Shown piece by piece: positions 9,706 to 62,558 of a DNA stretch of 64,000 bases. Source of the DNA: Candidatus Uhrbacteria bacterium. GTDB lineage: Bacteria > Patescibacteriota > Patescibacteriia > UBA9934 > GWF2-40-263. The DNA is taken from positions 99,855 to 163,854 of the forward strand of contig JAPLZK010000003.1 of assembly GCA_026395055.1 (NCBI GenBank), given 5' to 3'. The notes under the pieces were generated by a model that was not told the origin of the DNA, made no database searches, and saw only the letters and a program-made list of their open reading frames with translations. Each line of letters opens with the position of its first letter. Positions within the stretch are counted from its first letter, which is position 1. Made by a program: the position numbers and the translations under genes.

Positions 9706-11535
9706 TTGCGGTATGATGTCGCAACAAAACCTATGGCTGTTCCGCTCCTCGAGGTGAACCACCTCAACAAATCTTACGGAAAACAAATCGTCGTAAAAGA
9801 CGTCTCTTTTGTGGTAACAGAAGGCCAAAAGATCGCTCTGATTGGACGAAACGGTTCTGGGAAGACAACGCTCATGAATATGCTTACGGGCGCAGAAGAG
9901 CGAGATTCTGGTGATTTCAAAGTATTCGATCGTACACGCGTCGGCGTTATCCGTCAGCATGAAGTGTTGCCAAGCGACGTCTCGGTCGCGATGTTTCTTG
10001 AACAACGAACCGGCAAGCCTGTTTGGACGATCGCGAAACTTGCATCCGAGTTCGGATTGCACACGGATCATCTCGAGAAAACAGCAGCGCAACTCTCGGG
10101 TGGTTATCAAATGCGTGTGAAGATTGTGGCCATGCTTCTTGAAGAACCAAACCTGCTTCTTCTCGACGAACCAGTGAACTATCTCGACTTGAATACGTTG
10201 CTTCTCCTCGAGCACTTCTTGAAATCGTATAAAGGAAGTTTCATTCTCGTCGCTCACGACCGCGAGTTCCTTGAAAACACCTGTACAACAACGTTCGAGC
10301 TAGAACGTGGCGAACTTACAACATACTCGGGGACGGTCGAGAATTATTTGGTGTTCAAGGAAGAGCAGCGGGAATATGCGCTCAGAACAAACAAGAAGCT
10401 TGCGCGCGAGATTGAACATCACCAAGAGTTCGTTGATCGATTTGGTGCGAAAGCAACAATGGCGTCACGCGCACAAAGCAAATCAAAGCACATTGCAAAA
10501 CTGCGAAAGAAAATTGCGGGTGTACATGCAGATCTTGCAACAACAAAGATTAAAATTTCTTGCCCAATGGTTCCGCCAGGAACGGCTGTGTATGCAGAGG
10601 AGGTTTCGGTTGGATATGGCGAGAAAGTGATCGTCGACAAAATCAATTTCCACATCAATCGTGGAGACAAGGTTGTGATTGCCGGAGAGAACGGTCAGGG
10701 AAAGACGACATTGTTGAAGACGCTCGCAGGAATTCTCGAGCCGCTTTCGGGAAAGTTAAAGTGGTGGCATCACGCGGACATTGGTTACTACGATCAGAAA
10801 GTAGACGCGACATTAATCGCAAACGAGACGGTCTTGAATTACTTGATGCGCATGGCGCCGCATATCTCGAGCGGCGAACGCATTCTCATGATGGCGGGAA
10901 ACTTTTTGTTTCGCGATGACGATCTCGAAAAGCCTACGAGCGTATTATCGGGAGGCGAACGTGCACGATTGTGTCTCGCGGGTATTTTGCTCCACGAACA
11001 TTCCGTGCTGCTTCTCGATGAGCCTACAAACCATTTAGATGTTGAAACGGCCGAAGCTCTTGCGATCGCTCTGAAACACTATGAAGGAACCGTCATCTTT
11101 GTTTCTCACGCTCGTACGTTCGTAAACGCGCTTTGCGATAAGGTTCTCGAAATCCGATTCGGTACGCTCAGAAACTATCCTGGACCGTATGAGGAGTATG
11201 TAGCGGATCTGGCTGAGTTGATGGCGATGGAAGCGGGTGACTCAAGAACCCCCTCCTTCGTCAAGGAGGGGGCAGGGGGTGGTCGTGCGCAGGAACGTAT
11301 CGAGAAGGCGGAGGCTCGCGCAAAGCTCAAAGAACTCCAGCGTGCTGTCGAGCGTCTCGAAAAGCTCATGAAAGTCCTGGACCGTGAGCGCAGTGAGATT
11401 CTCCAGTTCTATTTCGACAATCCAACCGAGTACGCGCCAGAAAAGGCAACGCGCCTTGGTGAACTTGATGAAGAGTACAAACAAAAAGAAGATGAGTGGT
11501 TCAAATTACAGGAACAGATTGAGGGGTTGTCATAA
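9706..11535 (+). CDS. ABC-F family ATPase (two ABC domains, C-terminal coiled coil)
   Basis: two Walker A (GRNGSGKTT, GENGQGKTT), two LSGG signatures, no TM domain; alternative start Met10 at 9733. Confidence 0.85.
   Translation: MRYDVATKPMAVPLLEVNHLNKSYGKQIVVKDVSFVVTEGQKIALIGRNGSGKTTLMNMLTGAEERDSGDFKVFDRTRVGVIRQHEVLPSDVSVAMFLEQRTGKPVWTIAKLASEFGLHTDHLEKTAAQLSGGYQMRVKIVAMLLEEPNLLLLDEPVNYLDLNTLLLLEHFLKSYKGSFILVAHDREFLENTCTTTFELERGELTTYSGTVENYLVFKEEQREYALRTNKKLAREIEHHQEFVDRFGAKATMASRAQSKSKHIAKLRKKIAGVHADLATTKIKISCPMVPPGTAVYAEEVSVGYGEKVIVDKINFHINRGDKVVIAGENGQGKTTLLKTLAGILEPLSGKLKWWHHADIGYYDQKVDATLIANETVLNYLMRMAPHISSGERILMMAGNFLFRDDDLEKPTSVLSGGERARLCLAGILLHEHSVLLLDEPTNHLDVETAEALAIALKHYEGTVIFVSHARTFVNALCDKVLEIRFGTLRNYPGPYEEYVADLAELMAMEAGDSRTPSFVKEGAGGGRAQERIEKAEARAKLKELQRAVERLEKLMKVLDRERSEILQFYFDNPTEYAPEKATRLGELDEEYKQKEDEWFKLQEQIEGLS
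11249..11272. repeat. GC-rich palindromic element CCCCCTCCTT-CGTC-AAGGAGGGGG, in frame inside ABC-F CDS
   Basis: perfect 10-bp inverted arms; encodes ...PSFVKEGAGGG...; near-identical copy at 34286. Confidence 0.5.
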
Positions 11536-34173: not shown

Positions 34174-35145
34174 ATGCGAAACAAACGACCATTTCCAAAA
34201 ATTCCTGTGCTTTTGTGCCTGGTCGTCATTGCCGTGGTCGTTTTTCAGTATCGAGCCTATCGTTTGCCGTACGACCACCCCCTAACCCCCTCCTTGATGA
34301 AGGAGGGGGGAGTAGATCTGGTTTCCGGAATGCTGCTTCCAGACTCTGTTCCCGCCATTGATCATCCAAAATTTGAATCAACATCGGTTGCAGATCAATA
34401 TTTGAACAACGACGGGCTTGGAATCTCTGTTGAATCAAATGGAGCCTCACGATTTTATCCGTATCAGATTCTTGTCTGGCATCATGTTGTGAACGATGTT
34501 ATCTCTGGACAGCCTCTTCTTGTTTCATACAATCCGTTTGCGATGAGTGGGGCTGTGTATCAACGAACAACCCAAGGAACGGTTCTTGATTTCGGACTTT
34601 CTGATAAACTCGCAAACAGCAATCTTTTGTTGTATGATCGCGCCACGCATTCGCTTTGGGATCCGATGACGCATTCTGCGATCGATGGTGAGAAAAAAGG
34701 AACAGTGCTCGCGCGATATCCATCGACCGTGATGTTGTGGAATACGTACAAAACAGTTCATCCAGATGGTCAGGTCCTTTCTCGAGACACGGGCTTCTCG
34801 CGTGATTATACACACGACCCTTACGGAGATTATGTTTACAGCGAAAAAATTCTTTTTCCCGTAACACATAAAGACGATCGTCTCGCGTCAAAGGTTCTTG
34901 TGTACGGGATTGAATGGAATCAGAAACAGAAAGCGTATCCAATCATGCTTCTTGAGAAACAAAACACAGTCCGTGATTCGATTGACGGAGCGAATATATC
35001 CGTTGAGTATGATGCAAAGTCGCATGTTGTCCACGCTTATCAGCTCGACGCAAGTGGAAATCACCAAAACGAAATTCCCGTGACCGAATCATTTTGGTTT
35101 GCGTGGGTGGCAGGGTTTCCAAACACAGACCTTTATCATTCCTAA
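34174..35145 (+). CDS. DUF3179 family protein
   Basis: N-terminal TM, conserved ...SRFYPYQILVWHHVVND..., LLLYDRATHSLW, FWFAWVAGFPNTDLY pattern. Confidence 0.6.
   Translation: MRNKRPFPKIPVLLCLVVIAVVVFQYRAYRLPYDHPLTPSLMKEGGVDLVSGMLLPDSVPAIDHPKFESTSVADQYLNNDGLGISVESNGASRFYPYQILVWHHVVNDVISGQPLLVSYNPFAMSGAVYQRTTQGTVLDFGLSDKLANSNLLLYDRATHSLWDPMTHSAIDGEKKGTVLARYPSTVMLWNTYKTVHPDGQVLSRDTGFSRDYTHDPYGDYVYSEKILFPVTHKDDRLASKVLVYGIEWNQKQKAYPIMLLEKQNTVRDSIDGANISVEYDAKSHVVHAYQLDASGNHQNEIPVTESFWFAWVAGFPNTDLYHS
34286..34309. repeat. GC-rich palindromic element CCCCCTCCTT-GATG-AAGGAGGGGG, in frame inside DUF3179 CDS
   Basis: perfect 10-bp arms identical to copy at 11249; encodes ...PLTPSLMKEGGVD...; preceded by CCACCCCCTAACCCC tract. 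Confidence 0.5.
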
Positions 35146-44889: not shown

Positions 44890-44986
44890 GAGGGGTAAGG
44901 GGCTAGAGGCAAGGGACTAGATTGAAATAATTTTCGTTCTTGTACCACCCTTTGTCTCGTCCCTCGCCCCTTGCCCCTAACCCCTT
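44890..44986. repeat. long imperfect G-rich/C-rich inverted repeat in atpE-atpF intergenic spacer
   Basis: left arm GAGGGGTAAGGGGCTAGAGGCAAGGGAC, right arm GTCCCTCGCCCCTTGCCCCTAACCCCTT (23/28 complementary), ~40-nt loop. Confidence 0.45.
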
Positions 44987-47447: not shown

Positions 47448-47452
47448 GTTTT

Positions 47453-47541
47453 GTGTCATTGCGAGCGAAGCGCGGCAATCTTTCTAGGGAGTTTATCTCA
47501 AGGAAAAAGATTGCTTCGTCGTCGAACTCCTCGTAATGACA
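47453..47541. repeat. intergenic hairpin/repeat before atpG (TTGTCATTGCGAG...GCAATCTTT // AAAGATTGCTTCGTCGTCGAACTCCTCGTAATGACAA)
   Basis: outer and inner inverted arms; right half repeats the element before atpA. Confidence 0.4.
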
Positions 47542-47551
47542 ATAAAAATAT

Positions 47552-49856
<2,305 letters not shown>

Positions 49857-49945
49857 ATAATAAATCCGAATATCGAATAACGAAATTCGAAAACAGAGTA
49901 AGGTTTTCGACATTCGGATTTTGTCTTCATTTCGAATTTTATCTT
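49857..49945. repeat. 7-bp periodic CGAAnnn repeat element between atpD and atpC
   Basis: TCCGAAT ATCGAAT AACGAAA TTCGAAA ... TTTTCGACATTCGGATTT ... ATTTCGAATTTTAT; homologous copy at 62144..62234. Confidence 0.45.
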
Positions 49946-50371
49946 ATGTATTTGAATTTAAAGATCGTCACCCCAGAACGCATTGTCTATGAAGACGATG
50001 TTGATTCTGTTTCTCTCATGACAGAAATGGGTGAAGTCACGATTTTGCCAAATCACGTTCCCTTGGTATCAAATCTTCGCGCGGGTGAAGTTCGATTGAA
50101 AAAGAATGGGGAAGAGTCACATCTTGTTGCGTCAACTGGATTTCTCGAGGTGCGTCCCGGAAATCAGGTCGTGATCCTCGCAGACACAGCAGAACGTTCA
50201 GAAGAACTTGAACTCGAGAAGATTGAGGAAGCAAAGGAACGTGCTCGTAAATTCCTTACGGAAACCAAGCATAAAGACGACGTGGCGTTTGCGGATGCGG
50301 CAGTTCACCTAGAAAGAGAGCTCGCCCGATATCACGTTGCGCTTAAACGAAAGAAATCACATAAAAACTAG
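49946..50371 (+). CDS. atpC: F0F1 ATP synthase subunit epsilon
   Basis: N-terminal beta-sandwich pattern LKIVTPERIVYEDDV, C-terminal helices. Confidence 0.85.
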   Translation: MYLNLKIVTPERIVYEDDVDSVSLMTEMGEVTILPNHVPLVSNLRAGEVRLKKNGEESHLVASTGFLEVRPGNQVVILADTAERSEELELEKIEEAKERARKFLTETKHKDDVAFADAAVHLERELARYHVALKRKKSHKN

Positions 50372-50501
50372 AAAAAGATATCCACCGCTGAACGCGGTGG
50401 ATTTTTATTTAGCCTTGACGGAAAGGATGACTGGAGGTATCATCGTGTTCTCCAAGTGAGTATTTGGAGACGTTCTTTGATCGTAAACCCTTACAAGGAG
50501 T

Positions 50502-51316: not shown

Positions 51317-51856
51317 ATGAGCTTTCCAAAATTACTGAAGCGACTTTTTCTTGGACCACGTGTTACTGAAAAACAGGAATCTTTTTTAAAAACAGATAAA
51401 GAATTTGAAGCTGTCGGCGCGGAATTAAAATCCATCGTGCAATCTTTATATGGAGGACGATCCCTTCGTATTCGTGCGGTTGATGGAGGTTCAACAAATG
51501 CAGAAGAGAACGAGCTCACCGCTCTTAGCAATGCCTACTACGATATTGATCGTTTTGGGTTGAGTTTCGTTGCGTCTCCACGTCATGCAGACATGGTTTG
51601 GGTAACAGGTTGTGTGACGCGCAACCTTGAGCGTGCGGTGAAAACAACCTATGAAGCCGCACCAGAGCCATGCATTGTTGTCGCCATTGGTGACGGAGCT
51701 TGCACGGGAGGAATCTGGAAAGATTCTTATGCGGTAGTTGGAGCTCTTGAAAATGTTATTCCGGTTCACATCAAGATTCCTGGAGATCCGCCAACGCCAA
51801 CGCAAATCTTGCGTGGAGTTTTAAACGCGCTCAAACAATCATCCTCAAAATCTTAA
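51317..51856 (+). CDS. NuoB/HycG-like small subunit lacking three of four N2 cluster cysteines
   Basis: aligns to NuoB SPRxAD...GxCAxxGG...PGCPP but CCxxE -> GGSTNAEE and PGCPP -> PGDPP; only GDGACTGG Cys retained. Confidence 0.75.
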   Translation: MSFPKLLKRLFLGPRVTEKQESFLKTDKEFEAVGAELKSIVQSLYGGRSLRIRAVDGGSTNAEENELTALSNAYYDIDRFGLSFVASPRHADMVWVTGCVTRNLERAVKTTYEAAPEPCIVVAIGDGACTGGIWKDSYAVVGALENVIPVHIKIPGDPPTPTQILRGVLNALKQSSSKS

Positions 51857-51857
51857 T

Positions 51858-53840
51858 ATGAATCTTTCGTTTTTTGTTGTGCTGTCTTTGTCTGGAGTAT
51901 TCCTTTCTGCACTTATTTCATTTATCAGCGCAAAAGGGCAGGGGCACCGCGCAGTCGTGACGCTCCTCGCGTTGTCTACGGGACTTGGAGCCTTTTCAAG
52001 TGCGGCTTTTTTGTTGAGTGGTCAATCTCAACTCACAATCACTCAATCTGCGTGGCTTTTTGGAACACCATTCGTTTTATCTGTTCTCTCAGCACTATTC
52101 TTTTTTCTTTTAAACACAGTCGCTTGTCTCGCATCTGTTTACGCCATGAAGTATGTGGAACAGTATACGGAAGTCTATAACGTTCGCGTTCTCGATGGTC
52201 TCATGGCTATTTTCGTGCTCGGCATGCAAGGCGTCCTTCTTGCGGGCACACCGTTTGGATTTCTTGTGTTCTGGGAAATCATGTCGCTGTCATCCTTCTT
52301 TCTTGTCATGGCAGACAAAGAAGCGGCATCCGTTCGCGCAGCGCTCTTTTATCTCATCATGACACATCTTGGGGCAGGAGCGATCCTTGCTGGATTTATG
52401 ATCCTCTCGAACGGATCATTACTTGAATCATTCACGCGCCTCGCCATTCTCGCGCAACATCTTCCACCTTCAACACTGTTTGGTGTATTTCTTTTATTTC
52501 TCTTTGGCTTTGGCTCAAAGGCGGGACTTGTTCCGTTTCATGTCTGGCTTCCAGAAGCTCACCCACAAGCTCCATCGCACATTTCCGCACTCATGTCTGG
52601 AGTGATGTTAAAAATGGCGCTTTACGGTTTTTTGGTAATGACCTTCACTGTCCTTCCAATCGGAAGCTCGACCGCAGCCCTTATTGTGATTGCGCTTGGA
52701 CTTCTCTCGGCTGTTTACGGAGTGATTTACGCCGTGATTGAACGTGATGTGAAGCGTGTCCTTGCGTTTAGTAGTATTGAAAACATGGGAATTATTTTCA
52801 CCATGCTTGGTGTTGCCATGCTCACACAATCACAAGGAATGTCTGCATTCTCACACGTTGCCCTCGGCGCAGCGTTGTTGTTTGCCATTGCACACGCCTT
52901 TTTTAAGTCCGGATTGTTTATGGGGGCTGGAGTCATGGTTCATGCCGCACATTCGAGATCGCTCGAAGTGATGGGGGGATTATCAAAGCGTATGCCAGCA
53001 TTTTCTGGCGCAATGCTCATCCTTGCGCTTGCAGCCGCAGCACTTCCTCCATTCTCCGCATTTATGGCGGAATGGACGTTTGTGCAAAATCTCGTTGCAA
53101 ATTTGTCGACCATGTCGCCATTTATTCAGGGTGTTCTTGTCTTGGTTCTTGTGACCATGGCACTTGTTGGGGGTCTCGCGTTATTCGCCATGATCAAGTT
53201 GTTCGGGATCGGATTCCTTGCTGAGCCTCGTTCAGAACATGTTGCACACGCTAAAGCTCCTGGAAAACTCATCGCAATTCCAATTTATCTTCTTGCAGCC
53301 TGTTCCGTTCTGGTCGGACTTCTTGCACCAGCGATTTTAAGAACGATCGGATACGGGGATCTCACGGTTAATTACGACTTGCACACAAACATAGTTCTTG
53401 GAGGAGGATCCATGAATCCAGGTAAACTCCTCGCGCTTCTTGTCGCAACGTTCTTCCTCGTTCTTCTTTTACGTCGTGTGCTCTCGAACGTTAAGCACGA
53501 ACGTGAATATCACACGTGGGACTGCGGACAGCCAATCACTCCAGGAATGGAATTCACCGCAACAGCTTTCTCCGCATCGATTCGATTCTTCTTCCGTGTG
53601 ATTACACGCACAAAAAAGAATGTGATTACAACTCCGATCATTGCAAGTAATCCATGGATTGCAAGCCGAACATTCTCTCTCGAGCTTCGACAAATTTGGT
53701 ACGACGATCTTTACGTGCCAATCCAAAACGCGTGTCTCTGGACGTCTACCCAAGTTCGTAAACTCCAAAACGGTGTCATTCAATTCTATATCGCCCTTAT
53801 CTTCATTGCCCTCGTAGTAACGCTCGCGATCGCCCTATGA
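51858..53840 (+). CDS. NuoL/MrpA/HyfB-like antiporter-type membrane subunit
   Basis: 660 aa, ~16 TM, conserved proton-pumping-subunit core. Confidence 0.75.
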   Translation: MNLSFFVVLSLSGVFLSALISFISAKGQGHRAVVTLLALSTGLGAFSSAAFLLSGQSQLTITQSAWLFGTPFVLSVLSALFFFLLNTVACLASVYAMKYVEQYTEVYNVRVLDGLMAIFVLGMQGVLLAGTPFGFLVFWEIMSLSSFFLVMADKEAASVRAALFYLIMTHLGAGAILAGFMILSNGSLLESFTRLAILAQHLPPSTLFGVFLLFLFGFGSKAGLVPFHVWLPEAHPQAPSHISALMSGVMLKMALYGFLVMTFTVLPIGSSTAALIVIALGLLSAVYGVIYAVIERDVKRVLAFSSIENMGIIFTMLGVAMLTQSQGMSAFSHVALGAALLFAIAHAFFKSGLFMGAGVMVHAAHSRSLEVMGGLSKRMPAFSGAMLILALAAAALPPFSAFMAEWTFVQNLVANLSTMSPFIQGVLVLVLVTMALVGGLALFAMIKLFGIGFLAEPRSEHVAHAKAPGKLIAIPIYLLAACSVLVGLLAPAILRTIGYGDLTVNYDLHTNIVLGGGSMNPGKLLALLVATFFLVLLLRRVLSNVKHEREYHTWDCGQPITPGMEFTATAFSASIRFFFRVITRTKKNVITTPIIASNPWIASRTFSLELRQIWYDDLYVPIQNACLWTSTQVRKLQNGVIQFYIALIFIALVVTLAIAL

Positions 53841-54772
53841 ATTCCTTTCTCCTAACTCTCGTCCAATTCATCGCTGTCATTCTCGTCGCACCATTCGTGA
53901 CGGGGCTGGTTCGCATGTGCAAGGCGCGATTCCAAGGCCGACACGGTGCTTCACCATTTTTGCCGTACATCACGTATGCAACACTTCTCAAGAAACAAAT
54001 GGTTATTTCGAAAAGCACCTCTTGGGTTTTTCGTTTGGTTCCATTTGTTGTTCTTGCGACGACGTTGTTTCTTGTTTGCGTTTTACCACTTCTTGTTTTC
54101 GGCGGAGCCTTTGTATCACTCGGTCACTTCATGATTGTTGCCGGTGTTCTCGCACTCGGTGCGGCATTTCTTGTTATGGGTGGACTTGAAAGTGCAAGTG
54201 CATTCGGAGGAATGGGCGCATCTCGTGAAATGACGTTAGCGTCCCTCGTCGAGCCAGCCATGATCGCAACATTCGCAACATTTTCCATCGTCACCGGCGC
54301 ATTCACCGTCGACGCGATGTTTGCAAACGCGCATATTCTCACTTCACCCGCATTGATTCCAGCAATCGCTGCGCTTATCATGGTCGCGCTTGCGGAGAAT
54401 GCGCGTTATCCGGTCGACAACCCAGCAACACACCTTGAACTTACAATGGTTCACGAGGCGATGGTTCTTGAATACTCTGGACCTTATCTTGCGATGCTTG
54501 AATACGCATCCGCAGTGAAACTCACCATTTTTTCTTTGCTTGTTGCAAACATCTTGTTTCCCATGACTCTTGCGGTTGATGCAACTCTTGTTGCGATCTT
54601 GATTACGATTGCGTACATGATCGTGAAAGTCATCGTTGTTTCATTCTTGCTCGCGCTGCTTGAATCATTGATTGCCAAAATGCGTTTTTATAGAATGCAA
54701 GAATACATGACCATTGCGTTCTTCTTTGCGCTTGCTGGCCTTGTCTTTGCTCTCATCCACATCACCCTATGA
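53837..54772 (+). CDS. NuoH/HycD/HyfC-like membrane subunit
   Basis: GLVRMCKARFQGRHGASPFLPY and AENARYPVDNPATHLELTMVHEA correspond to NuoH conserved loops. Confidence 0.65.
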   Translation: MNSFLLTLVQFIAVILVAPFVTGLVRMCKARFQGRHGASPFLPYITYATLLKKQMVISKSTSWVFRLVPFVVLATTLFLVCVLPLLVFGGAFVSLGHFMIVAGVLALGAAFLVMGGLESASAFGGMGASREMTLASLVEPAMIATFATFSIVTGAFTVDAMFANAHILTSPALIPAIAALIMVALAENARYPVDNPATHLELTMVHEAMVLEYSGPYLAMLEYASAVKLTIFSLLVANILFPMTLAVDATLVAILITIAYMIVKVIVVSFLLALLESLIAKMRFYRMQEYMTIAFFFALAGLVFALIHITL

Positions 54773-55398
54773 TCTCACTTTCTCTTTGGAATAATATCTT
54801 CATGGGCGGAACGCTTTTGTTTGCGATCGTCATGATGGGAATGCCACGGCTCCCAGCGATGCTTCGCTTCTTCGCGTTGTCCTCACTTTGTCTCGCGGGA
54901 CTCATTGTCACGTCATCTCTCATGAAAGGGGATGAACAGCCGTACGCAATCGCGATCATCAATATTGTGTTCAAGGTAATCCTTGCTCCAAGCATTTTGT
55001 TTTTTGCTGCACGCAAGGTTCGCGCATCCATGGCGCTCAAGTTTTATTTGCGTCCAACCGCAACCTACTTCGCTGCGCTCCTCGTGTTGCTCATCTCTGT
55101 ATTCGTTTCGTTGCGCATGCCGGGCGTTCCATATCTTTCGATCGCCCTTGTTCTTCTTGGGCTCGTATTCATGATGGTTCGAAAAGATTTGTACTCACAA
55201 ATCATTGGATTCATGACCATGGAAAATGGAATTGCCGCTTACGGTGTACTCATGATTGGCGGTTTTCCCTTCATGATTGAAACAGGAATCTTGTTCGTTG
55301 TGATCACCGGAGCAATCTTGATGGCAATCTTAAGTCGTCATGTGCAAGAGCTCTACGCAACGGGCGACACGGAATCCTTAACCGAGCTCACCGAATAA
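54769..55398 (+). CDS. HyfE/NuoK-like small membrane subunit
   Basis: 209 aa, 6 TM, C-terminal MENGIAAYG...ETGI NuoK-like segment. Confidence 0.5.
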   Translation: MISLSLWNNIFMGGTLLFAIVMMGMPRLPAMLRFFALSSLCLAGLIVTSSLMKGDEQPYAIAIINIVFKVILAPSILFFAARKVRASMALKFYLRPTATYFAALLVLLISVFVSLRMPGVPYLSIALVLLGLVFMMVRKDLYSQIIGFMTMENGIAAYGVLMIGGFPFMIETGILFVVITGAILMAILSRHVQELYATGDTESLTELTE

Positions 55399-55399
55399 T

Positions 55400-56857
55400 A
55401 TGCCAACTATTTTCATCCTATTTCTTTTTGCAGCCGCAAGCGCATACATTGCTCGAACGGAAAAACAGATTCGTGTAAGCGCACTCGTGTTTGCGATTCT
55501 TGGTGGTGGTTCAAGTCTTTACCTCGCAGTCATGAGACTTCTTGTAAGTCCATACACACCCGTCTCAGGTTGGTTTCGTGCGGACATGTACACCTGGTTC
55601 ATGATTGCGCTTGTTTCATTTGTGTATATCACTGCAACGATTGCGAGCGTTCGCTATACAGGCGAGGAATCTCGCGAAGGATTGCTTACGATCGAGAAAC
55701 TCCGTGTCTACTTTTTCTCCATTCCACTCTTTATCCTTGCCATGCTTGTTTCTGTTCTCGCAAACCACCTTGGTTTGCTTTGGATTGGACTTGAAGGCAC
55801 AACTCTTACGACAACCTTGCTCGTTGCGCTGTATCGTAAGGATGCATCCATTGAGGCGGCTTGGAAGTTCATCATGCTCTGCTCCATTGGTATCGGACTT
55901 GGAATGATTGGAATGCTCATGTTTGTGCACGCCGGAGTTGTCGCTGGACTCAACGTGTTTGATGCGTTCTCATACTCAACGCTTCGAACGAGTGCACATC
56001 TTCTTGACCCAGCATCGATGAAGCTCGCTTTCGTCTTTCTTCTCGTTGGAATTGGAACCAAAGTTGGTTTTGTCCCAATGCACACATGGCTTCCGGATGC
56101 TCACAGTAAAACTCCCTCGCCAATTAGCGCACTTCTTTCAGGGGTACTCTTGAACGTTGCGTTCTTTGTCTTGCTACGTTGCAAAGTTCTCACCGATCTT
56201 TCGATCGGAAGTTCTGCATGGTCTGATCACCTTATGATCGGCTTTGGCGTGCTCTCCGTTGTTGTTGCCGCATTTTTCTTACTCCAACAACGCAACTACA
56301 AGCGCATGCTTGCGTATTCGAGTGTTGAACACATGGGACTCATGGGCTTTGCGTCTGGACTCGGTCCTGTTGGAATGCTGGCACTTACGATCCATGCTGT
56401 CTTTCACACCCTTACAAAATCCGCATTGTTCTTCACATCGGGTGAAATTTTGCTTTCTCAAAAAACAACAAAGATTGCCGGAATCAAAAATTTGATGAAG
56501 AAAACTCCGATCACGGCAACGTTGTTCCTCCTCGGCATTCTTGCGATCATCGCCGTCCCACCATCCGGACTCTTTACGAGTGAGTTCATGATTGTCGGTG
56601 CTGGACTCCAATCCGCTCGCGGGCTCACACTCGTCCTGCTTCTCGCTCTCACCATGATTGCGTTTAGTATGTTGAAGAGTACGACGTCCATGCTTTACAC
56701 AGCAGATGATGGAGTCGTCGAACATACACATAAAGAAAAATGGACGCTCACACACGCGGTCGTCATCGTTCAGTTGATTCTGATCGTTGTGCTCGGACTT
56801 TTCATCACCACCGCGCCAGTCCTCGACTTTTTCAAGTCAATTTCACAATCGATCTAA
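55400..56857 (+). CDS. NuoN/NuoM/HyfF-like antiporter-type membrane subunit
   Basis: 485 aa, ~14 TM, conserved core of complex I antiporter subunits. Confidence 0.7.
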   Translation: MPTIFILFLFAAASAYIARTEKQIRVSALVFAILGGGSSLYLAVMRLLVSPYTPVSGWFRADMYTWFMIALVSFVYITATIASVRYTGEESREGLLTIEKLRVYFFSIPLFILAMLVSVLANHLGLLWIGLEGTTLTTTLLVALYRKDASIEAAWKFIMLCSIGIGLGMIGMLMFVHAGVVAGLNVFDAFSYSTLRTSAHLLDPASMKLAFVFLLVGIGTKVGFVPMHTWLPDAHSKTPSPISALLSGVLLNVAFFVLLRCKVLTDLSIGSSAWSDHLMIGFGVLSVVVAAFFLLQQRNYKRMLAYSSVEHMGLMGFASGLGPVGMLALTIHAVFHTLTKSALFFTSGEILLSQKTTKIAGIKNLMKKTPITATLFLLGILAIIAVPPSGLFTSEFMIVGAGLQSARGLTLVLLLALTMIAFSMLKSTTSMLYTADDGVVEHTHKEKWTLTHAVVIVQLILIVVLGLFITTAPVLDFFKSISQSI

Positions 56858-56858
56858 T

Positions 56859-58415
56859 ATGAACGCACAAGAAATTCTTCACACTATCAAATTGTCCGGC
56901 CACACCCATGGCTCTCTTGTGACGCTTGAGTCTGTTTCACCGGAATGGTTCACCCCGTTGTGCAATCGATTGTCCGCTGAGTTCAAACTTCCGCTTTCTT
57001 TGTTGTATGCAACAGATGATCGCAAAGAGGGAAAGGGGTTCGGTATTCATGTGTTGTTTGCGCTTGATGCGTCACACGAGTGGCTGCTTGTTGAGACAAC
57101 ATTGTCCGAAGAGAACCCAAGTTATGAATCTCTGACAAAAACAATCATGGAAGCGCATTGGTATGAGCGTTATGCCATGGATATGTTTGGCATTAAGGCA
57201 GAAGGTCATCCAGATCCACGTCGTTTGGTTCATCATGAGAACGTTCCGGCAAACACACATCCACTTCGTAAAGATTTTGCGTGGAATACAAAGATGGAGC
57301 ATGCAAATGAACCTTATCCAATGCATCACATTGAAGGCGAAGGAATCTTTGAGATTCCGGTCGGTCCAATTCACGCAGGTGTGATTGAGCCCGGACATTT
57401 TCGCTTTAACGTTGCGGGTGAACGTATTATTACCCTCGAAGGAAAGTTGTTCTTCACACACAAGGGTGTTGAGAAACTCCTTGAAGGAAAGACAGTTGCA
57501 CAAGCACTTCCATTCATTGAACGTATCTCAGGCGACATGTCTGCGTCACACACACTTGCATTTGCTCAAGCGATCGAGCAGATCTCAAGCGTGACGGTTC
57601 CAAAGCGTGCGCAAGAACTGCGTGTACTGATTACAGAACTTGAACGCATTACAATGCATACATTCGACATTGGAAACATGGCGGGAAACGGAACCGGATT
57701 TACGGTTGAAGCAGCTCATGGATTCCGTGTGAAAGAAAAAATCATGCGATTGTCTGAACGTGTGTTCGGAAATCGTTTTTGGCGCGGATTCGTTGTGCCG
57801 GGCGGAGTCTCGAAGACGTTGTCACAAGAAGAACTTCTCGATATTGTAAAAACAACAAAGGAAGTTGTTCAAGAGATGGAAGATCTCTTTCAGCTTGGTC
57901 GACACTCAGATGGACTTCGCGAGCGTCTCGAGACAACAGGTGTCCTCGCAAAAGAAGTCGCCGTAGCATTTGGTGCGCTTGGACTTCCAGCTCGTGGATC
58001 TGGAGTGGATCGTGACGTTCGTCGTGATCATCCTTATGCAGCGTATGCCGAGATGCAACCGGAAGTATTCACCTTTGAGAAAGGCGATGTCTATGCACGT
58101 TGGAAACTGCGCGCACTTGAGATGGTCGAATCAATGAAGCTCATCGAAAAGATTTGTGCCTCAAAGAACGACGGCTCTGTGCGTGTCGACGTACACGTAA
58201 AAGACGGCATGGCGATCGGTGCGGTCGAATCATGGCGTGGTGAGCTATTGAACGTGGTCTACGTCAGGAATGGTGTGATTGCACGCTGCGTTCCACGTGA
58301 TCCATCCTTCTGCAACTGGGCGCTCTTTGGAGCGATTGGCCCTGGAAACATCATTCCGGACTTTCCCTTGTGTAACAAATCATTGAACTTAAGTTATTCC
58401 GGAACCGATTTGTAA
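56859..58415 (+). CDS. fused NuoC-NuoD / HycE-like large subunit lacking NiFe-ligand cysteines
   Basis: ORF 56787 trimmed to MNAQEIL; NuoC-like WYERYAMDMFGI..GHPD; GPIHAGVIEPGHFRF; L1 motif RxCGxCxxxH replaced by RISGDMSASH; C-terminal DPCxxC replaced by DPSFCN. Confidence 0.8.
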   Translation: MNAQEILHTIKLSGHTHGSLVTLESVSPEWFTPLCNRLSAEFKLPLSLLYATDDRKEGKGFGIHVLFALDASHEWLLVETTLSEENPSYESLTKTIMEAHWYERYAMDMFGIKAEGHPDPRRLVHHENVPANTHPLRKDFAWNTKMEHANEPYPMHHIEGEGIFEIPVGPIHAGVIEPGHFRFNVAGERIITLEGKLFFTHKGVEKLLEGKTVAQALPFIERISGDMSASHTLAFAQAIEQISSVTVPKRAQELRVLITELERITMHTFDIGNMAGNGTGFTVEAAHGFRVKEKIMRLSERVFGNRFWRGFVVPGGVSKTLSQEELLDIVKTTKEVVQEMEDLFQLGRHSDGLRERLETTGVLAKEVAVAFGALGLPARGSGVDRDVRRDHPYAAYAEMQPEVFTFEKGDVYARWKLRALEMVESMKLIEKICASKNDGSVRVDVHVKDGMAIGAVESWRGELLNVVYVRNGVIARCVPRDPSFCNWALFGAIGPGNIIPDFPLCNKSLNLSYSGTDL

Positions 58416-58428
58416 AGCTCCAAATCAA

Positions 58429-58471
58429 AAATCCCAAATTCCAAATGATTGGAGCTTGGGATTTTCTTTTT
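58429..58471 (+). terminator. hairpin cluster/terminator after large subunit gene
   Basis: AAATCCCA..TGGGATTT stem followed by TCTTTTTGG; overlapping AGCTCCAA..TTGGAGCT stem. Confidence 0.35.
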
Positions 58472-58554
58472 GGTGCTTTACGCTTGACGCTCGCGTCATT
58501 CTCGAGTAGTCTCTCCACATCGTCACCTCAACTTCGACGATACAAGGATAGCTC

Positions 58555-59212: not shown

Positions 59213-62143
59213 ATGAATCTCCTTGAAGACCTGAATCCAGAACAAATCTCCGCTGTAACCCACACGACAGGGCCGCTTATGATTGTGGCTGGGGCCGGAA
59301 CAGGGAAGACAACGGTGGTAACCAAACGTATTGCATGGCTTATCGAACAAGGGCTCGCAAAACCTGAGCAGATTCTTTCGCTTACATTTACGGACAAGGC
59401 GGCCGGTGAAATGGAAGAGCGTGTTGATCTGTTGTTGCCGTATGGGTATGTAGATCTTCAGATATCGACCTTCCACGCGTTTTGTGAACGTCTGCTTAGA
59501 GAATATGGAGCGGAAATTGGACTCGCACGCGACTTTAAGCTTTCGACAGAACTCGACACCTGGCTTTTGATGCGTCAGCATTTTGATAAGTTCATTCTCG
59601 ATTACTATCGTCCACTCGGAAACCCAACCAAGTATCTCAAGGGTTTCCTTTCACATTTTTCGAGATTAAAGGATCAAGCCATTGATCCGGATTTTTATCT
59701 TAAGTTCGTCGAAGAGCATGTTCTCGACAAGGATGACAAACAATCTGATGAAGATATCGAATCGGAAATGAAACGTTTAAGTGAGCTTGCGAATGCGTAT
59801 CAGACACATCAATCTATTCTTCAAGAGCACGATGCGCTCGACTTTGGTGATCTTATTTTGTATGCATTGAAACTCCTCCGTGATCGACCACGTATTTTAA
59901 AACTCGTTCGTGACAAGTTTCGTTTCGTGCTTGTCGATGAGTTTCAGGACACAAACCACGCGCAGTATGAACTCGTAAAACTGATCGCGGCGCCAAGCAA
60001 TAACCTGACCATTGTTGGAGATGATGATCAATCGATCTATCATTTTCGAGGTGCGTCCCTCGAGAATATCTTACGTTTTGAAACAGACTTCCCAGATACC
60101 GTTCGAGTTGTACTAACCAAGAACTACCGATCCACTCAATCTATTCTCGATCACGCGCACACCTTCATCCAGATGAACAATCCATACCGTCTTGAGACAA
60201 GAAGCGGATTAACCAAACGTTTAATCGCACATTCTGAGAAGACGGGAACGATTGAACACATTCATTGCTCAACACTTGAAGACGAAGTTCTCTCTGTTGT
60301 GAAGAAGATCGATGAGCTAAAAGAACAAGATCCCAATTTAGGTTGGGACGATTTTGCGATTCTCGTCCGATCAAACAGTGCTGGCGACGATTTTGCAACC
60401 GCATTTGATCGTCACGGAATCCCATTTCAGTTTCTGGCTCTCTCAGGACTTTATACAAAGCCGGTCATTCTCGACCTGCTCGCGTTCATGCAGGTGATTG
60501 ATCGACCATTTGAGAGCCCAAGCTTCTATCGTGTCCTCACGTCGCCCATGTACGGAATCGATGCGCGTTCAATCGCCGAACTAAATCTTCTTGCTCAAAT
60601 GAAGGGGAAGTCACTTTTCGAGGCATGTGAAATGGCTTCGTCGATCTCTGCGCTTACACCTGAGATTCTCGAGAAACTTCGAACGATCCTCACGCAACTA
60701 AATGAACTTAGAACTTCCTTGAAAGGAAAGCCTGCAACAGAATGTTTTAAACAACTCGTTCGAAAGCTTGGTTATATTGAATATCTGAGCGCACGACCAG
60801 AGGCGGAGAAAATGGAGTCTTTTCGTTATCTCAATCAATTCCTAGAACGTGTAAAATCGTTTGAAACGCGTAACGATCAAAAGACGTTGCACGCTTTTCT
60901 TGAAGAGTTTGCACACGAGCGTGATGCGGGTGAGGAAGGCTCGCTCTCGGTTGATTTTGAAACAGGGCCAGAACTTGTACGCATCATGACGGTTCATGCT
61001 TCAAAAGGTCTTGAGTTTAAACACGTATTCATCGTAAATCTTGTTGACAGAAGATTCCCAGCGCAGGCACGTGGGGAAACGATTCCGATTCCGGATGGGC
61101 TCTTCGAGAACGCAAACGAACATGACGATGCGCACATACACGAGGAGCGCCGGTTATTTTATGTTGCGATGACACGTGCCAAAGAAGGATTGTATTTCAC
61201 TTCTGCGGATGATTATGGCGGATCGAGGGCGCGTAAGCTATCAAGATTCCTTCACGAACTCGGGTACGAGAAACCGGATGGAAAGGATCGCTCGCTCGTG
61301 CACTTGTTTGACGAGGATCGGGGGGAACAAGAGGAGCACATTTCGAAAACCGAGATTTCCATTCCGGTACCAAAACAATTCTCGTTTACACAACTTGCTG
61401 CATTTAAAACGTGTCCGTATCAATACAAATTCGCCCATATTCTGAAAGTGCCCGTCTTTGGTCGCTGGACGTTTTCATTTGGAAAAACCATGCACAACAC
61501 GCTGCAAAACTTTTTTACGCTTTGGCTTGAACGTACGGGGATGAAGCAAGCGTCATTGTTCGGTACAACCTCGAATGCAACAAATCCAATACCTGTCACA
61601 GAAAAGGACCTTCTCGACCTTTATACACATGCTTGGATTGATGATTGGTATGAAGATGATAGACAACGTGAAGAGTATCGCACAAAAGGAAAAGAGTCTC
61701 TGCTTGCGTATTTCCGATCGTTTGCCGAGCATCGACCAAGTCCGCTCTTTCTCGAACAAGGATTCACCCTGAAGTTCGGCGATGTTGTGTTGAAAGGACG
61801 GATCGACCGTATGGATGCGTTTGAAGATGGGGTTGAGATTATTGATTATAAAACAGGTTCACCAAAGACGGAGAAGACGCTGAAACCGGAAGATCGCGAA
61901 CAGTTGTATTTGTATCAAATGGCTGCAATCGACGTGCTCGGACTCAAGCCAATGAAACTCACGTATCACTATCTTGAAGACAACTCAGACGTTTCGTTTA
62001 TTGGAACAGACGATCAGCTTGCTGTTTTGCGACAAAACATTATTGATCGCGTCCAAATGATTCGCAAAAGCCAATTCGAAGCGACTCCGGGTTTTCATTG
62101 TCGTTTTTGTGACTTCGCGGATATTTGTGAATTCAGACAGTAG
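59213..62143 (+). CDS. UvrD/PcrA-type SF1 helicase fused to C-terminal Cas4/AddB-like PD-(D/E)xK nuclease with Fe-S cysteines
   Basis: GAGTGKT Walker A, helicase motifs I-VI; C-terminal ...TCPYQYKF...DRMD...IIDYKTG...CRFCDFADIC (4 Cys). Confidence 0.85.
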   Translation: MNLLEDLNPEQISAVTHTTGPLMIVAGAGTGKTTVVTKRIAWLIEQGLAKPEQILSLTFTDKAAGEMEERVDLLLPYGYVDLQISTFHAFCERLLREYGAEIGLARDFKLSTELDTWLLMRQHFDKFILDYYRPLGNPTKYLKGFLSHFSRLKDQAIDPDFYLKFVEEHVLDKDDKQSDEDIESEMKRLSELANAYQTHQSILQEHDALDFGDLILYALKLLRDRPRILKLVRDKFRFVLVDEFQDTNHAQYELVKLIAAPSNNLTIVGDDDQSIYHFRGASLENILRFETDFPDTVRVVLTKNYRSTQSILDHAHTFIQMNNPYRLETRSGLTKRLIAHSEKTGTIEHIHCSTLEDEVLSVVKKIDELKEQDPNLGWDDFAILVRSNSAGDDFATAFDRHGIPFQFLALSGLYTKPVILDLLAFMQVIDRPFESPSFYRVLTSPMYGIDARSIAELNLLAQMKGKSLFEACEMASSISALTPEILEKLRTILTQLNELRTSLKGKPATECFKQLVRKLGYIEYLSARPEAEKMESFRYLNQFLERVKSFETRNDQKTLHAFLEEFAHERDAGEEGSLSVDFETGPELVRIMTVHASKGLEFKHVFIVNLVDRRFPAQARGETIPIPDGLFENANEHDDAHIHEERRLFYVAMTRAKEGLYFTSADDYGGSRARKLSRFLHELGYEKPDGKDRSLVHLFDEDRGEQEEHISKTEISIPVPKQFSFTQLAAFKTCPYQYKFAHILKVPVFGRWTFSFGKTMHNTLQNFFTLWLERTGMKQASLFGTTSNATNPIPVTEKDLLDLYTHAWIDDWYEDDRQREEYRTKGKESLLAYFRSFAEHRPSPLFLEQGFTLKFGDVVLKGRIDRMDAFEDGVEIIDYKTGSPKTEKTLKPEDREQLYLYQMAAIDVLGLKPMKLTYHYLEDNSDVSFIGTDDQLAVLRQNIIDRVQMIRKSQFEATPGFHCRFCDFADICEFRQ

Positions 62144-62234
62144 AAATAAAGACGAGTATCGAAAGACGAAATCCGAAAACCAGTCTTCGATTTTCGATAT
62201 TCTGATTTCGAATTTTATGTTATCCTTTCTGCGT
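62144..62234. repeat. 7-bp periodic CGAnnnn repeat element (second copy) between helicase-nuclease and DUF721 genes
   Basis: CGAGTAT CGAAAGA CGAAATC CGAAAAC CAGTCTT CGATTTT CGATATT CTGATTT CGAATTT; ~75% identical to 49857..49945. Confidence 0.45.
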
Positions 62235-62558
62235 ATGGGAATGTCTTCAATGAAACAGTTGGTTCGACGACAAATCACAAGAAAACAATTTGGAACTGCC
62301 ATCACTTCGTCACAGATTGTTGGATGGGGGAATGAGTTTTTGCGCGATGTCTTGCCGTTTGATAAAGATGCAGATGCTCGAGTAGTGTCTTACAAAGACG
62401 GCATGCTAAAAATTGTGACAAAGAGCGGTTCCACAACACAATACCTAAAGGAGTTTGAGGAAGAACTCAGAAATCGGATGATGGAAAAATTTCAAGATAC
62501 GAAGCTAGATAAAATTATTTTCCAAATCAATCGCGCTCTCCTAGAAGAATCTCTATGA
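62235..62558 (+). CDS. DUF721 (DciA-like) family protein
   Basis: ORF 62109 trimmed to MGMSSMKQ; pattern ...QIVGWGNEFLRDVLPF...GMLKIVTKSGSTTQYLKEFEEEL... resembles DUF721. Confidence 0.45.
   Translation: MGMSSMKQLVRRQITRKQFGTAITSSQIVGWGNEFLRDVLPFDKDADARVVSYKDGMLKIVTKSGSTTQYLKEFEEELRNRMMEKFQDTKLDKIIFQINRALLEESL

Follow-up and report, generated by a model that had tools for sequence, protein, structure and literature searches.

The window analysed here, a 64-kb stretch of DNA (46% G+C) from an uncultured groundwater Candidatus Uhrbacteria bacterium (Patescibacteria, or candidate phyla radiation, CPR), carries within its atp operon a spacer built from 7-nt repeats and their reverse complements. 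This spacer separates atpD, the gene for the F1 beta subunit (48471-49856, + strand; taken from the open reading frame list, with Pfam matches to ATP-synt_ab, ATP-synt_ab_N and ATP-synt_VA_C), from atpC, the gene for the F1 epsilon subunit (49946-50371, + strand; Pfam ATP-synt_DE_N, with homologues named Candidatus Uhrbacteria). The Pfam scan covered seven window proteins. Because the atpD stop codon occupies 49854-49856 and the atpC start lies at 49946, the 89 nt at 49857-49945 are the entire spacer: the element, hereafter copy 1, directly abuts the atpD stop codon.

The left arm of copy 1 (49867-49891, + strand) consists of four heptads that open with CGAA, namely CGAATAT CGAATAA CGAAATT CGAA(AAC); they start at 49867, 49874, 49881 and 49888, at a pitch of exactly 7 nt. 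The right arm (49906-49916, + strand) holds two phased TTCG units (TTCGACA TTCG) at 49906 and 49913, followed at 49920 by TTTG, a degenerate unit, and at 49931 by a TTCG that is out of phase. RNAfold predicts an imperfect stem-loop at 49862-49921 on the + strand (-20.8 kcal/mol, z = -3.9; -24.1 kcal/mol with flanks), whose stem begins 5 nt past the atpD stop and leaves a U-rich unpaired tail of 24 nt before the atpC ATG. The 14-mer ATTTCGAATTTTAT (49929-49942, + strand), which has an exact match in a second element of the window, amounts to two more right-arm units without partners. There is no Shine-Dalgarno (SD) motif upstream of atpC, a + strand promoter scan found no promoter-like site inside either element, and a tRNA/tmRNA search gave no hit. 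A promoter in the conserved tail was considered and set aside: TTTTAT/TATNTT lies too near the atpC ATG, it has no -35 element, and the + strand scan flags nothing there. Copy 1 is an inverted heptameric simple-sequence repeat, (CGAAAnn)n-loop-(nnTTTCG)n, inserted in one Candidatus Uhrbacteria lineage.

The second element, copy 2, occupies a 91-nt spacer (62144-62234) between a gene for a UvrD-like helicase with a PD-(D/E)XK nuclease domain (59213-62143, + strand; Pfam) and a small gene (62235-62558, + strand) whose product is weakly DciA-like, below the Pfam cut-off. Its left arm, CGAAAGA CGAAATC CGAA(AAC) (62160-62177, + strand), has CGAA starts at 62160, 62167 and 62174 and is preceded by a degenerate CGAGTAT whose CGAG lies at 62153. 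The right arm (62186-62210, + strand) carries TTCG at 62186, 62193 and 62207 and TTCT at 62200, all in 7-nt phase, and an inverted repeat at 62154-62202 (+ strand) is predicted by RNAfold to form a stem-loop. The copy 2 instance of ATTTCGAATTTTAT (62205-62218, + strand) is in phase with the right arm and lies 16 nt before the ATG at 62235. The two copies agree in 78% of aligned columns.

A generic detector, which accepts any 4-mer found three or more times at 7-nt spacing if two or more copies of its reverse complement lie within 70 nt, returned the copy 1 and copy 2 loci only, and none in 20 shuffles; set to periods of 5, 6 and 8-11 nt, it found nothing in the 64-kb window. The count for the window is two copies, and a profile search (nhmmer) of the window plus about 170 kb of Uhrbacteria DNA detected no third or decayed copy. 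The preliminary description of this DNA, made from its letters alone, had proposed heptad-spaced CGAA units with a mirrored second half, and both features hold. It had also set the element apart from CRISPR arrays, rightly: the units are 7 nt long and contiguous, as opposed to repeats of at least 20 nt with unique spacers. Its further claim of a homologous copy at 62144-62234 stands in part. A second element does exist there, with the exact 14-mer in common, but common descent is not proven: the local alignment score between the copies is 36, and elements from other phyla reach 35 (a Saccharibacteria metagenome-assembled genome, MAG) and 34 (an Acidobacteriota MAG) against copy 1, and 36 (an Armatimonadetes MAG) against copy 2. 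Judged by these scores, copy 1 and copy 2 are no closer to each other than to elements of other phyla. Because the cross-phylum scores are equal or nearly so, the likeness of the copies establishes only membership in a class, not derivation of one from the other.

Comparison with relatives identifies both elements as insertions of one lineage. Orthologous atpD-atpC junctions were collected from 14 distinct Candidatus Uhrbacteria relatives whose AtpC proteins are 71-94% identical to that of the window. Eight of them, including those with 94%, 93% and 92% AtpC identity, have a stop codon (TAA or TGA), 2-3 nt, and then ATG (for example TAATCTATG); another three have short unrelated spacers. The remaining three carry long hairpins, each unrelated in sequence to the CGAA element and to the other two: L125 has units of about 8 nt (AGTCGCGG AGTTATGG ... 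CATAACTT CACGACT), L126 a GTCATC..GAGCGGAGG.. palindrome, and L123 AATGTAT AATGTAT AAAGGGAT AAGGGAT with their complements. The last of these relatives has a further heptad hairpin, GTAGTTn / nAACTAC, at its atpG-atpD junction. Against the closest relatives the flanks of copy 1 are 82-88% identical, and the alignments stop at 49854/49856 and restart at 49960. At the copy 2 site, L120 and L122 have an 18-nt spacer and keep the downstream start ATGGGAATGTCTTCAATG. Since the orthologous sites are empty or unrelated in relatives, copy 1 and copy 2 are lineage-specific insertions.

The ancestral atpD-atpC junction was tight (2-3 nt) and presumably translationally coupled. In several sister lineages of a single CPR genus, unrelated hairpins have been gained independently at this junction, formerly 3 nt long. 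Filled and empty sites reveal no clear target-site duplication, the AT-rich flanks (AATAAA / TTTTAT) being ambiguous. A Logan contig (SRR20698644, 15.9 kb) is identical to the window over their overlap and reaches about 1 kb beyond it; the strain pairs at hand for comparing unit numbers are either identical or more than 10% diverged. Periodic unrelated hairpins in the atp junctions of sister Uhrbacteria lie at 1565-1647 and 3039-3112 in L123, at 2661-2753 in L125, and at 1-86 and 510-560 in L126, which also has a pure GGAAAGA tandem array 3' of atpC.

Beyond Uhrbacteria, a search for the pattern CGAANNNCGAAANNCGAAAAC-N(3-30)-TTCGA, restricted to one genome per species, returned at least 118 genome loci, against about eight expected from a rough uniform-composition estimate. 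An inside-out arrangement of the arms, GTTTTCGNNTTTCGNNNTTCG N{3,30} TCGAA, is a control pattern proposed for it. In viral contigs the search pattern had no match, a comparison without power because a control with a non-complementary partner also gave no viral match. The matches listed span Acidobacteriota/Terriglobia, Planctomycetota, Verrucomicrobiota, Desulfobacterota, Armatimonadota and others and, within the CPR, Saccharibacteria (L105) and Peribacter (L023); the CGAAAnn type is present in three CPR lineages. A phased right-hand TTCG array, the architecture of copy 1, occurs in 48 of 120 among the matches listed. The 22 clearly intergenic elements among these matches lie between tandem genes in 15 cases and between convergent genes in seven, and never between divergent genes. 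Their usual distance from the upstream stop is 5-30 nt, and in the convergent cases the element is essentially the sole sequence between the two stop codons. The left arm in L105 encodes the final 13 codons, with the stop, of a PBP gene, and a greA-like gene begins 12 nt past the right arm. By its sequence, copy 1 belongs to a class that spans phyla and sits at operon junctions and the 3' ends of genes.

Is the period of 7 nt itself a property of this class? We surveyed 507 kb of DNA that had not been selected for the motif, counting tandem arrays of at least three units and those with an inverted partner within 70 nt. At a period of 7 nt, 15 of 48 arrays have such a partner, compared with one of 12 at 5 nt, two of 16 at 8 nt, none of 17 at 10 nt, and two of 14 at 11 nt. 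Inverted arrays are strongly tied to the 7-nt period, and the unit sequence is not special: heptad hairpins are formed by CGTAAnn, CGTGAnn, GTAGTTn, TCAGnnn, GGGGnnn, CGGTTTT and AATTTTC units. At variable positions the two arms of the same element agree at 0.69, versus 0.60 +/- 0.02 for arms of different elements, a level reached in none of 200 controls. The arrangement with the A-rich arm first was tried as a sign of terminators and dropped: the ratio among unselected CGAAA pairs, five against one, stems from too few cases, and the whole set of unselected heptad hairpins is split 14 to 15.

Individual units recur in distant hosts. Hairpins of TCAGnnn heptads come from three unrelated phyla (L003, 99-194; L036, 1436-1504; L116, 5034-5110), and read on the opposite strand TCAGTTA is TAACTGA, the repeat described in Beggiatoaceae, cyanobacteria and Bacteroidetes; a small number of heptamer families may thus recur across bacteria. 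L045 and L111 (Terriglobia / Acidobacteriota) contain nested palindromes, in which outer 8-mer arms of the GATCGGGA type surround inner CGAAAnn heptad arms. These nested forms suggest that hairpins grow by symmetric addition of tandem units.

Copies 1 and 2 are not the sole palindromes of the window, which holds at least three further palindromic insertions in intercistronic junctions. In the atpE-atpF spacer, 160 nt long and folding at -73.8 kcal/mol, a GGGGnnn/nnnCCCC heptad hairpin occupies 44890-44985; its units (GGGGTAA GGGGCTA GAGGCAA GGGACTA ... TCGTCCC TCGCCCC TTGCCCC TAACCCC) resemble GGGGA(C/T)T of Nostoc and GGGAATC of Xanthomonas. At the atpA-atpG junction, which measures 3-4 nt in relatives, there is a 104-nt palindrome at 47448-47551, GTCATTGCGAGCGAAGCGCGGCAATC ... 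GATTGCTTCGTCGTCG..CTCGTAATGAC (-38.7 kcal/mol, z = -5.9); the GTCATC...GAGCGGAGG palindrome before atpC in L126 looks similar to it. The third, a CCAAAnn hairpin (CCAAATC AAAAATC CCAAATT CCAAATG) at 58412-58481, lies directly 3' of a NiFe-hydrogenase-like large-subunit gene and is followed by a promoter-like TTGACG-N17-TAGTCT; the orthologous site carries CGGTTTT-type sequence in L126 and L127. In six of the eight junction hairpins examined, the stem begins 0-5 nt past the stop and ends 4-11 nt before the start codon.

Other features of the window stand further from the element. A seven-gene cluster directly 3' of the atp operon (51317-58415) resembles a membrane-bound group-4 [NiFe]-hydrogenase with Mrp-like antiporters and has matches to Oxidored_q6, Proton_antipo_M (twice), NADHdh, Oxidored_q2 and Complex1_30kDa/49kDa; such a cluster is present in L123, L126 and L127 and lacking in L120, L122 and L125. 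A palindrome with common flanks, CCCCCTCCTT-N6/7-AAGGAGGGGG, occurs at 11249-11290 and 34275-34309 in opposite orientations. Both copies lie in frame within long open reading frames, for an ABC-F ATPase (...TPSFVKEGAGGGR...) and a 323-aa protein (...PLTPSLMKEGGV...), and look like the in-frame palindromic insertions of Rickettsia (Rickettsia palindromic element-like). Several window genes appear to be leaderless or short-leadered; in the helicase gene, for example, a TACAAT ends 9 nt ahead of the ATG at 59213.

Heptamer repeats have been on record since 1990-2007. Bacteria over-represent heptamer simple-sequence repeats, for which polymerase slippage has been proposed (PMC4692102; PMC4679880). 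Of the kinds described so far, the inverted heptameric simple-sequence repeat, with the unit GGGAATC in Xanthomonas and GGGGA(C/T)T in Nostoc (PMC4692102), comes closest to copy 1. In Xanthomonas, GGGAATC arrays form 70-75 inverted pairs with the potential for stem-loops (Rehm et al. 2015, PMC4692102). These pairs are intergenic, about 28 nt from the 5' open reading frame, mostly between co-oriented genes and rarely between divergent ones; the repeats are transcribed, vary among close relatives, and have no known function (PMC4692102). Our elements share with them runs of at least three tandem 7-nt units in both copies (the Rehm arrays typically have about four), a nearby inverted complementary array (the TTCG arms) with stem-loop potential, a position right after a stop codon in both copies, an avoidance of divergent genes in the wider class, and differences in length and sequence between close relatives. 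They differ from the GGGAATC / GGGGAYT family in their unit, CGAAAnn, which is AT-rich and, because it has no G-tracts, is without G-quadruplex potential.

The TAACTGA direct repeats, which lie just upstream of start codons (MacGregor 2015, PMC4679880), and the heptanucleotide elements listed in a Geobacter genome paper (PMC2700814) are likewise heptameric, intergenic, near start codons and scattered over phyla; unlike copy 1, they have a different unit and are nearly all direct, with one inverted set reported. We found no literature description of CGAAAnn-type heptad hairpins, and a literature search by repeat sequence strings gave unrelated primer matches only. No Rfam 15 family matched the window or 18 element-bearing loci at the gathering threshold, and at E up to 10 the locus gave chance-level matches only. 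The host also differs from those of Rehm et al.: it is a small-genome CPR bacterium in which the element fills a formerly 3-nt operon junction.

Several other classes of palindrome invite comparison. Repetitive extragenic palindromes (REPs) and bacterial interspersed mosaic elements (BIMEs) are 20-40 nt long and GC-rich, have a head of GTAG or CGTC, are found by the hundred in near-identical copies, and are tied to RAYT (REP-associated tyrosine) transposases; their proposed roles are protection of mRNA 3' ends and attenuation. Like them, our elements are imperfect palindromes that lie within operons or at the 3' ends of genes, in presumably transcribed intergenic sequence, and are rare between divergent genes; unlike them, copies 1 and 2 are AU-rich palindromes of 60-90 nt with no GTAG or CGTC head. 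The likeness to miniature transposable elements with inverted repeats (MITEs) and Rickettsia palindromic elements consists in small size, palindromic non-coding sequence and presence/absence polymorphism in close relatives, and the differences are an internal 7-nt periodicity, a lack of terminal inverted repeats that stand apart from the body, and no clear sign of a target-site duplication. An A-rich arm, a stem and a U-rich arm recall bidirectional intrinsic terminators, from which the elements differ in a stem that is long, AU-rich and mismatched, in an atpC gene that needs read-through, and in the presence of canonical terminators elsewhere in the genome. A scan for intrinsic terminators (GC stem of 5-14 bp, small loop, sense U-tract) passed over the element and flagged inner hairpins on the antisense strand only; the AU-rich stem of the sense strand has a large interior. 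Palindromic microsatellite or hairpin elements of organelle genomes, for instance Fusarium mitochondrial DNA, made of (A)n/(T)n tracts, are optional among close relatives (PMC7218506); the parallel lies in palindromic microsatellite arrays that are optional and suspected to be mobile or driven by slippage, and the difference in a mitochondrial setting without a 7-nt unit.

We favour the interpretation, with a probability of roughly 55%, that copy 1 is a slippage-prone palindromic insertion, transcribed as an intercistronic stem-loop and largely tolerated rather than selected. Arrays of 7-nt units would grow and change by replication slippage, with the arms kept, or made, complementary. The element would be transcribed within the atp mRNA, because it contains no + strand promoter and atpC needs read-through. 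There it may form a stem, AU-rich and with mismatches, of about 22 pairs that begins 5 nt past the atpD stop and would bring the atpD stop and the atpC start together and leave an open U-rich stretch before the ATG. If translation of atpC can continue in this way, the insertion would be tolerated, which would account for the finding that insertions at such junctions form hairpins. Should there be an effect beyond this, a REP-like one is likely: protection of the 3' end of the upstream cistron or a modest attenuation of read-through; we do not expect a specific regulatory switch.

Several observations weigh against this interpretation. Transcription of the element, its folding in vivo and its effect on atpC are steps that we infer. 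The fold of copy 2 (-15.9 kcal/mol, z = -0.8) is not significant alone, being no better than those of shuffles, and between stem end and start codon lie 24 nt in copy 1 and 32 nt in copy 2, more than the other junction hairpins leave there. Folding gives the sense strand no advantage over the antisense strand, and it shows no G-U bias; because both strands fold equally, nothing is specifically RNA-level, and the hairpin may be a by-product of events in DNA. The atpC start without an SD motif is no special evidence of coupling, because most window genes lack one (an SD-like 4-mer lies 4-18 nt upstream of 10 of the 65 predicted first start codons). Likeness inside the cross-phylum set is partly built in, because the search pattern was derived from the window copies. 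Finally, one genome holds a pair of elements whose units follow the same order, and about 170 kb from relatives contains no such element; this favours copy-and-paste over independent slippage.

This last point leads to a rival that we hold to be rather unlikely: a copy-and-paste mobile palindromic element, REP- or MITE-like and non-autonomous, spread by a trans-acting enzyme, with the heptads as internal structure. The two copies, 12 kb apart, have their unit variants in the order TATCGAA / ACGAAAT / CGAAAAC and share an AATAAA 5' flank and a ATTTCGAATTTTATNTT 3' end; both are missing from the orthologous sites of relatives, the profile search found nothing of this type in about 170 kb of relatives' DNA, and the gene-end distribution is like that of REPs. 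The score of 36 between the copies is, however, not above the 34-36 reached by other phyla. Comparison of filled and empty sites brings out neither a target-site duplication nor terminal repeats beyond the palindrome, the GTAG or CGTC head is absent, and the basis for the proposal is two copies. The unrelated hairpins of sister lineages at the same junction point to a general process, not to one family. A second rival, to which we give slightly less credence, is a selected intercistronic attenuator or processing site, in which the hairpin and its U-rich 3' arm would partly terminate transcription, or RNase III would cut, lowering epsilon relative to beta or uncoupling the stabilities of the cistrons. 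Long imperfect intercistronic hairpins are classic RNase III substrates, the 5' arm of copy 1 is A-rich and its 3' arm, after which UUUUGUCUU follows, is U-rich, and the wider class is confined to sites between tandem or convergent genes, near stop codons, where in convergent pairs little else separates the stops. Yet the function would be dispensable, as relatives manage with a 3-nt junction, and the L125 and L126 hairpins at this very site have no U-tract. Nor is a U-rich 3' arm a property of the class, the 5' arm being A-rich in 14 and T-rich in 15 of 31 unselected heptad hairpins. Real terminators of this genome are of another type: they combine a short GC stem with an A-tract and a T-tract, as in the canonical one 3' of atpC (50372-50410), and the + strand terminator scan flags neither copy.

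A broader proposal takes heptad hairpins, among them the CGAAAnn type of Acidobacteriota, Planctomycetota, Verrucomicrobiota, Desulfobacterota and CPR bacteria, as a functional cross-phylum module of intercistronic regions and 3' ends, its 7-nt pitch read by a conserved machine and the module gained repeatedly at coupled operon junctions to tune the expression ratio of adjacent cistrons. Candidate readers would be RNA polymerase, a ribosome that reinitiates across the stem, RNase III or a protein with a 7-nt single-strand footprint; we consider the proposal improbable. The preliminary description had offered two more specific functions. One, a protein-binding array, would engage a DNA-binding regulator of TCGA/TTCGAA or a protein that binds about 7 nt of single strand, such as a cold-shock-domain protein. 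Core repeats of 4-5 nt at fixed pitch, the recurrence of the core across phyla, and the reported binding of cold-shock proteins to heptamer repeats, one protein per heptamer (cited in PMC4679880), would fit. Against it, the class is absent from divergent, promoter-bearing spacers (0/22) and uses so many unrelated units that no single protein could explain it. Close relatives do without the element, only four of seven positions are fixed, not every unit contains TCGA, and a 7-bp spacing sets successive sites on different faces of the DNA helix; we regard an array as very unlikely, with binding by a single-strand-binding protein of about 7-nt footprint still conceivable. The other, a structured RNA leader, survives in the limited sense that a hairpin can fold in the transcript. 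As a conserved riboswitch- or leader-like RNA for atpC and the dciA-like gene, which the position of both copies just upstream of start codons and their common ATTTCGAATTTTAT might suggest, it is effectively refuted, because the orthologous sites are empty: eight of 14 atpD-atpC junctions lack any insertion and three hold unrelated hairpins. The element is moreover a plain repeat-built hairpin with several possible registers and no sense-strand bias, and Rfam offers nothing above chance even at E up to 10; we give this possibility almost no weight. The preliminary description had also named a lack of further copies and of conservation in related genomes as grounds for refutation. The outcome is mixed: neither a third copy nor conservation was found, yet many elements of the same type do occur in other phyla.

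The spacer between atpD and atpC should accordingly not be annotated as a riboswitch, a leader or a binding array, but as a lineage-specific repeat insertion. Of note is the occurrence of CGAAAnn heptad hairpins in very distant phyla, for which we found no describing paper or Rfam family. The heptad-repeat palindrome is a widespread and little-studied kind of bacterial repeat, here with a new unit and in new lineages. The general pattern, with its pitch of 7 nt, its elements in many phyla and its hairpins gained repeatedly and independently at one junction, is of somewhat higher interest than the single locus. In tightly packed small-genome bacteria, clean comparisons of filled and empty sites could make the origin and function of heptamer repeats testable.

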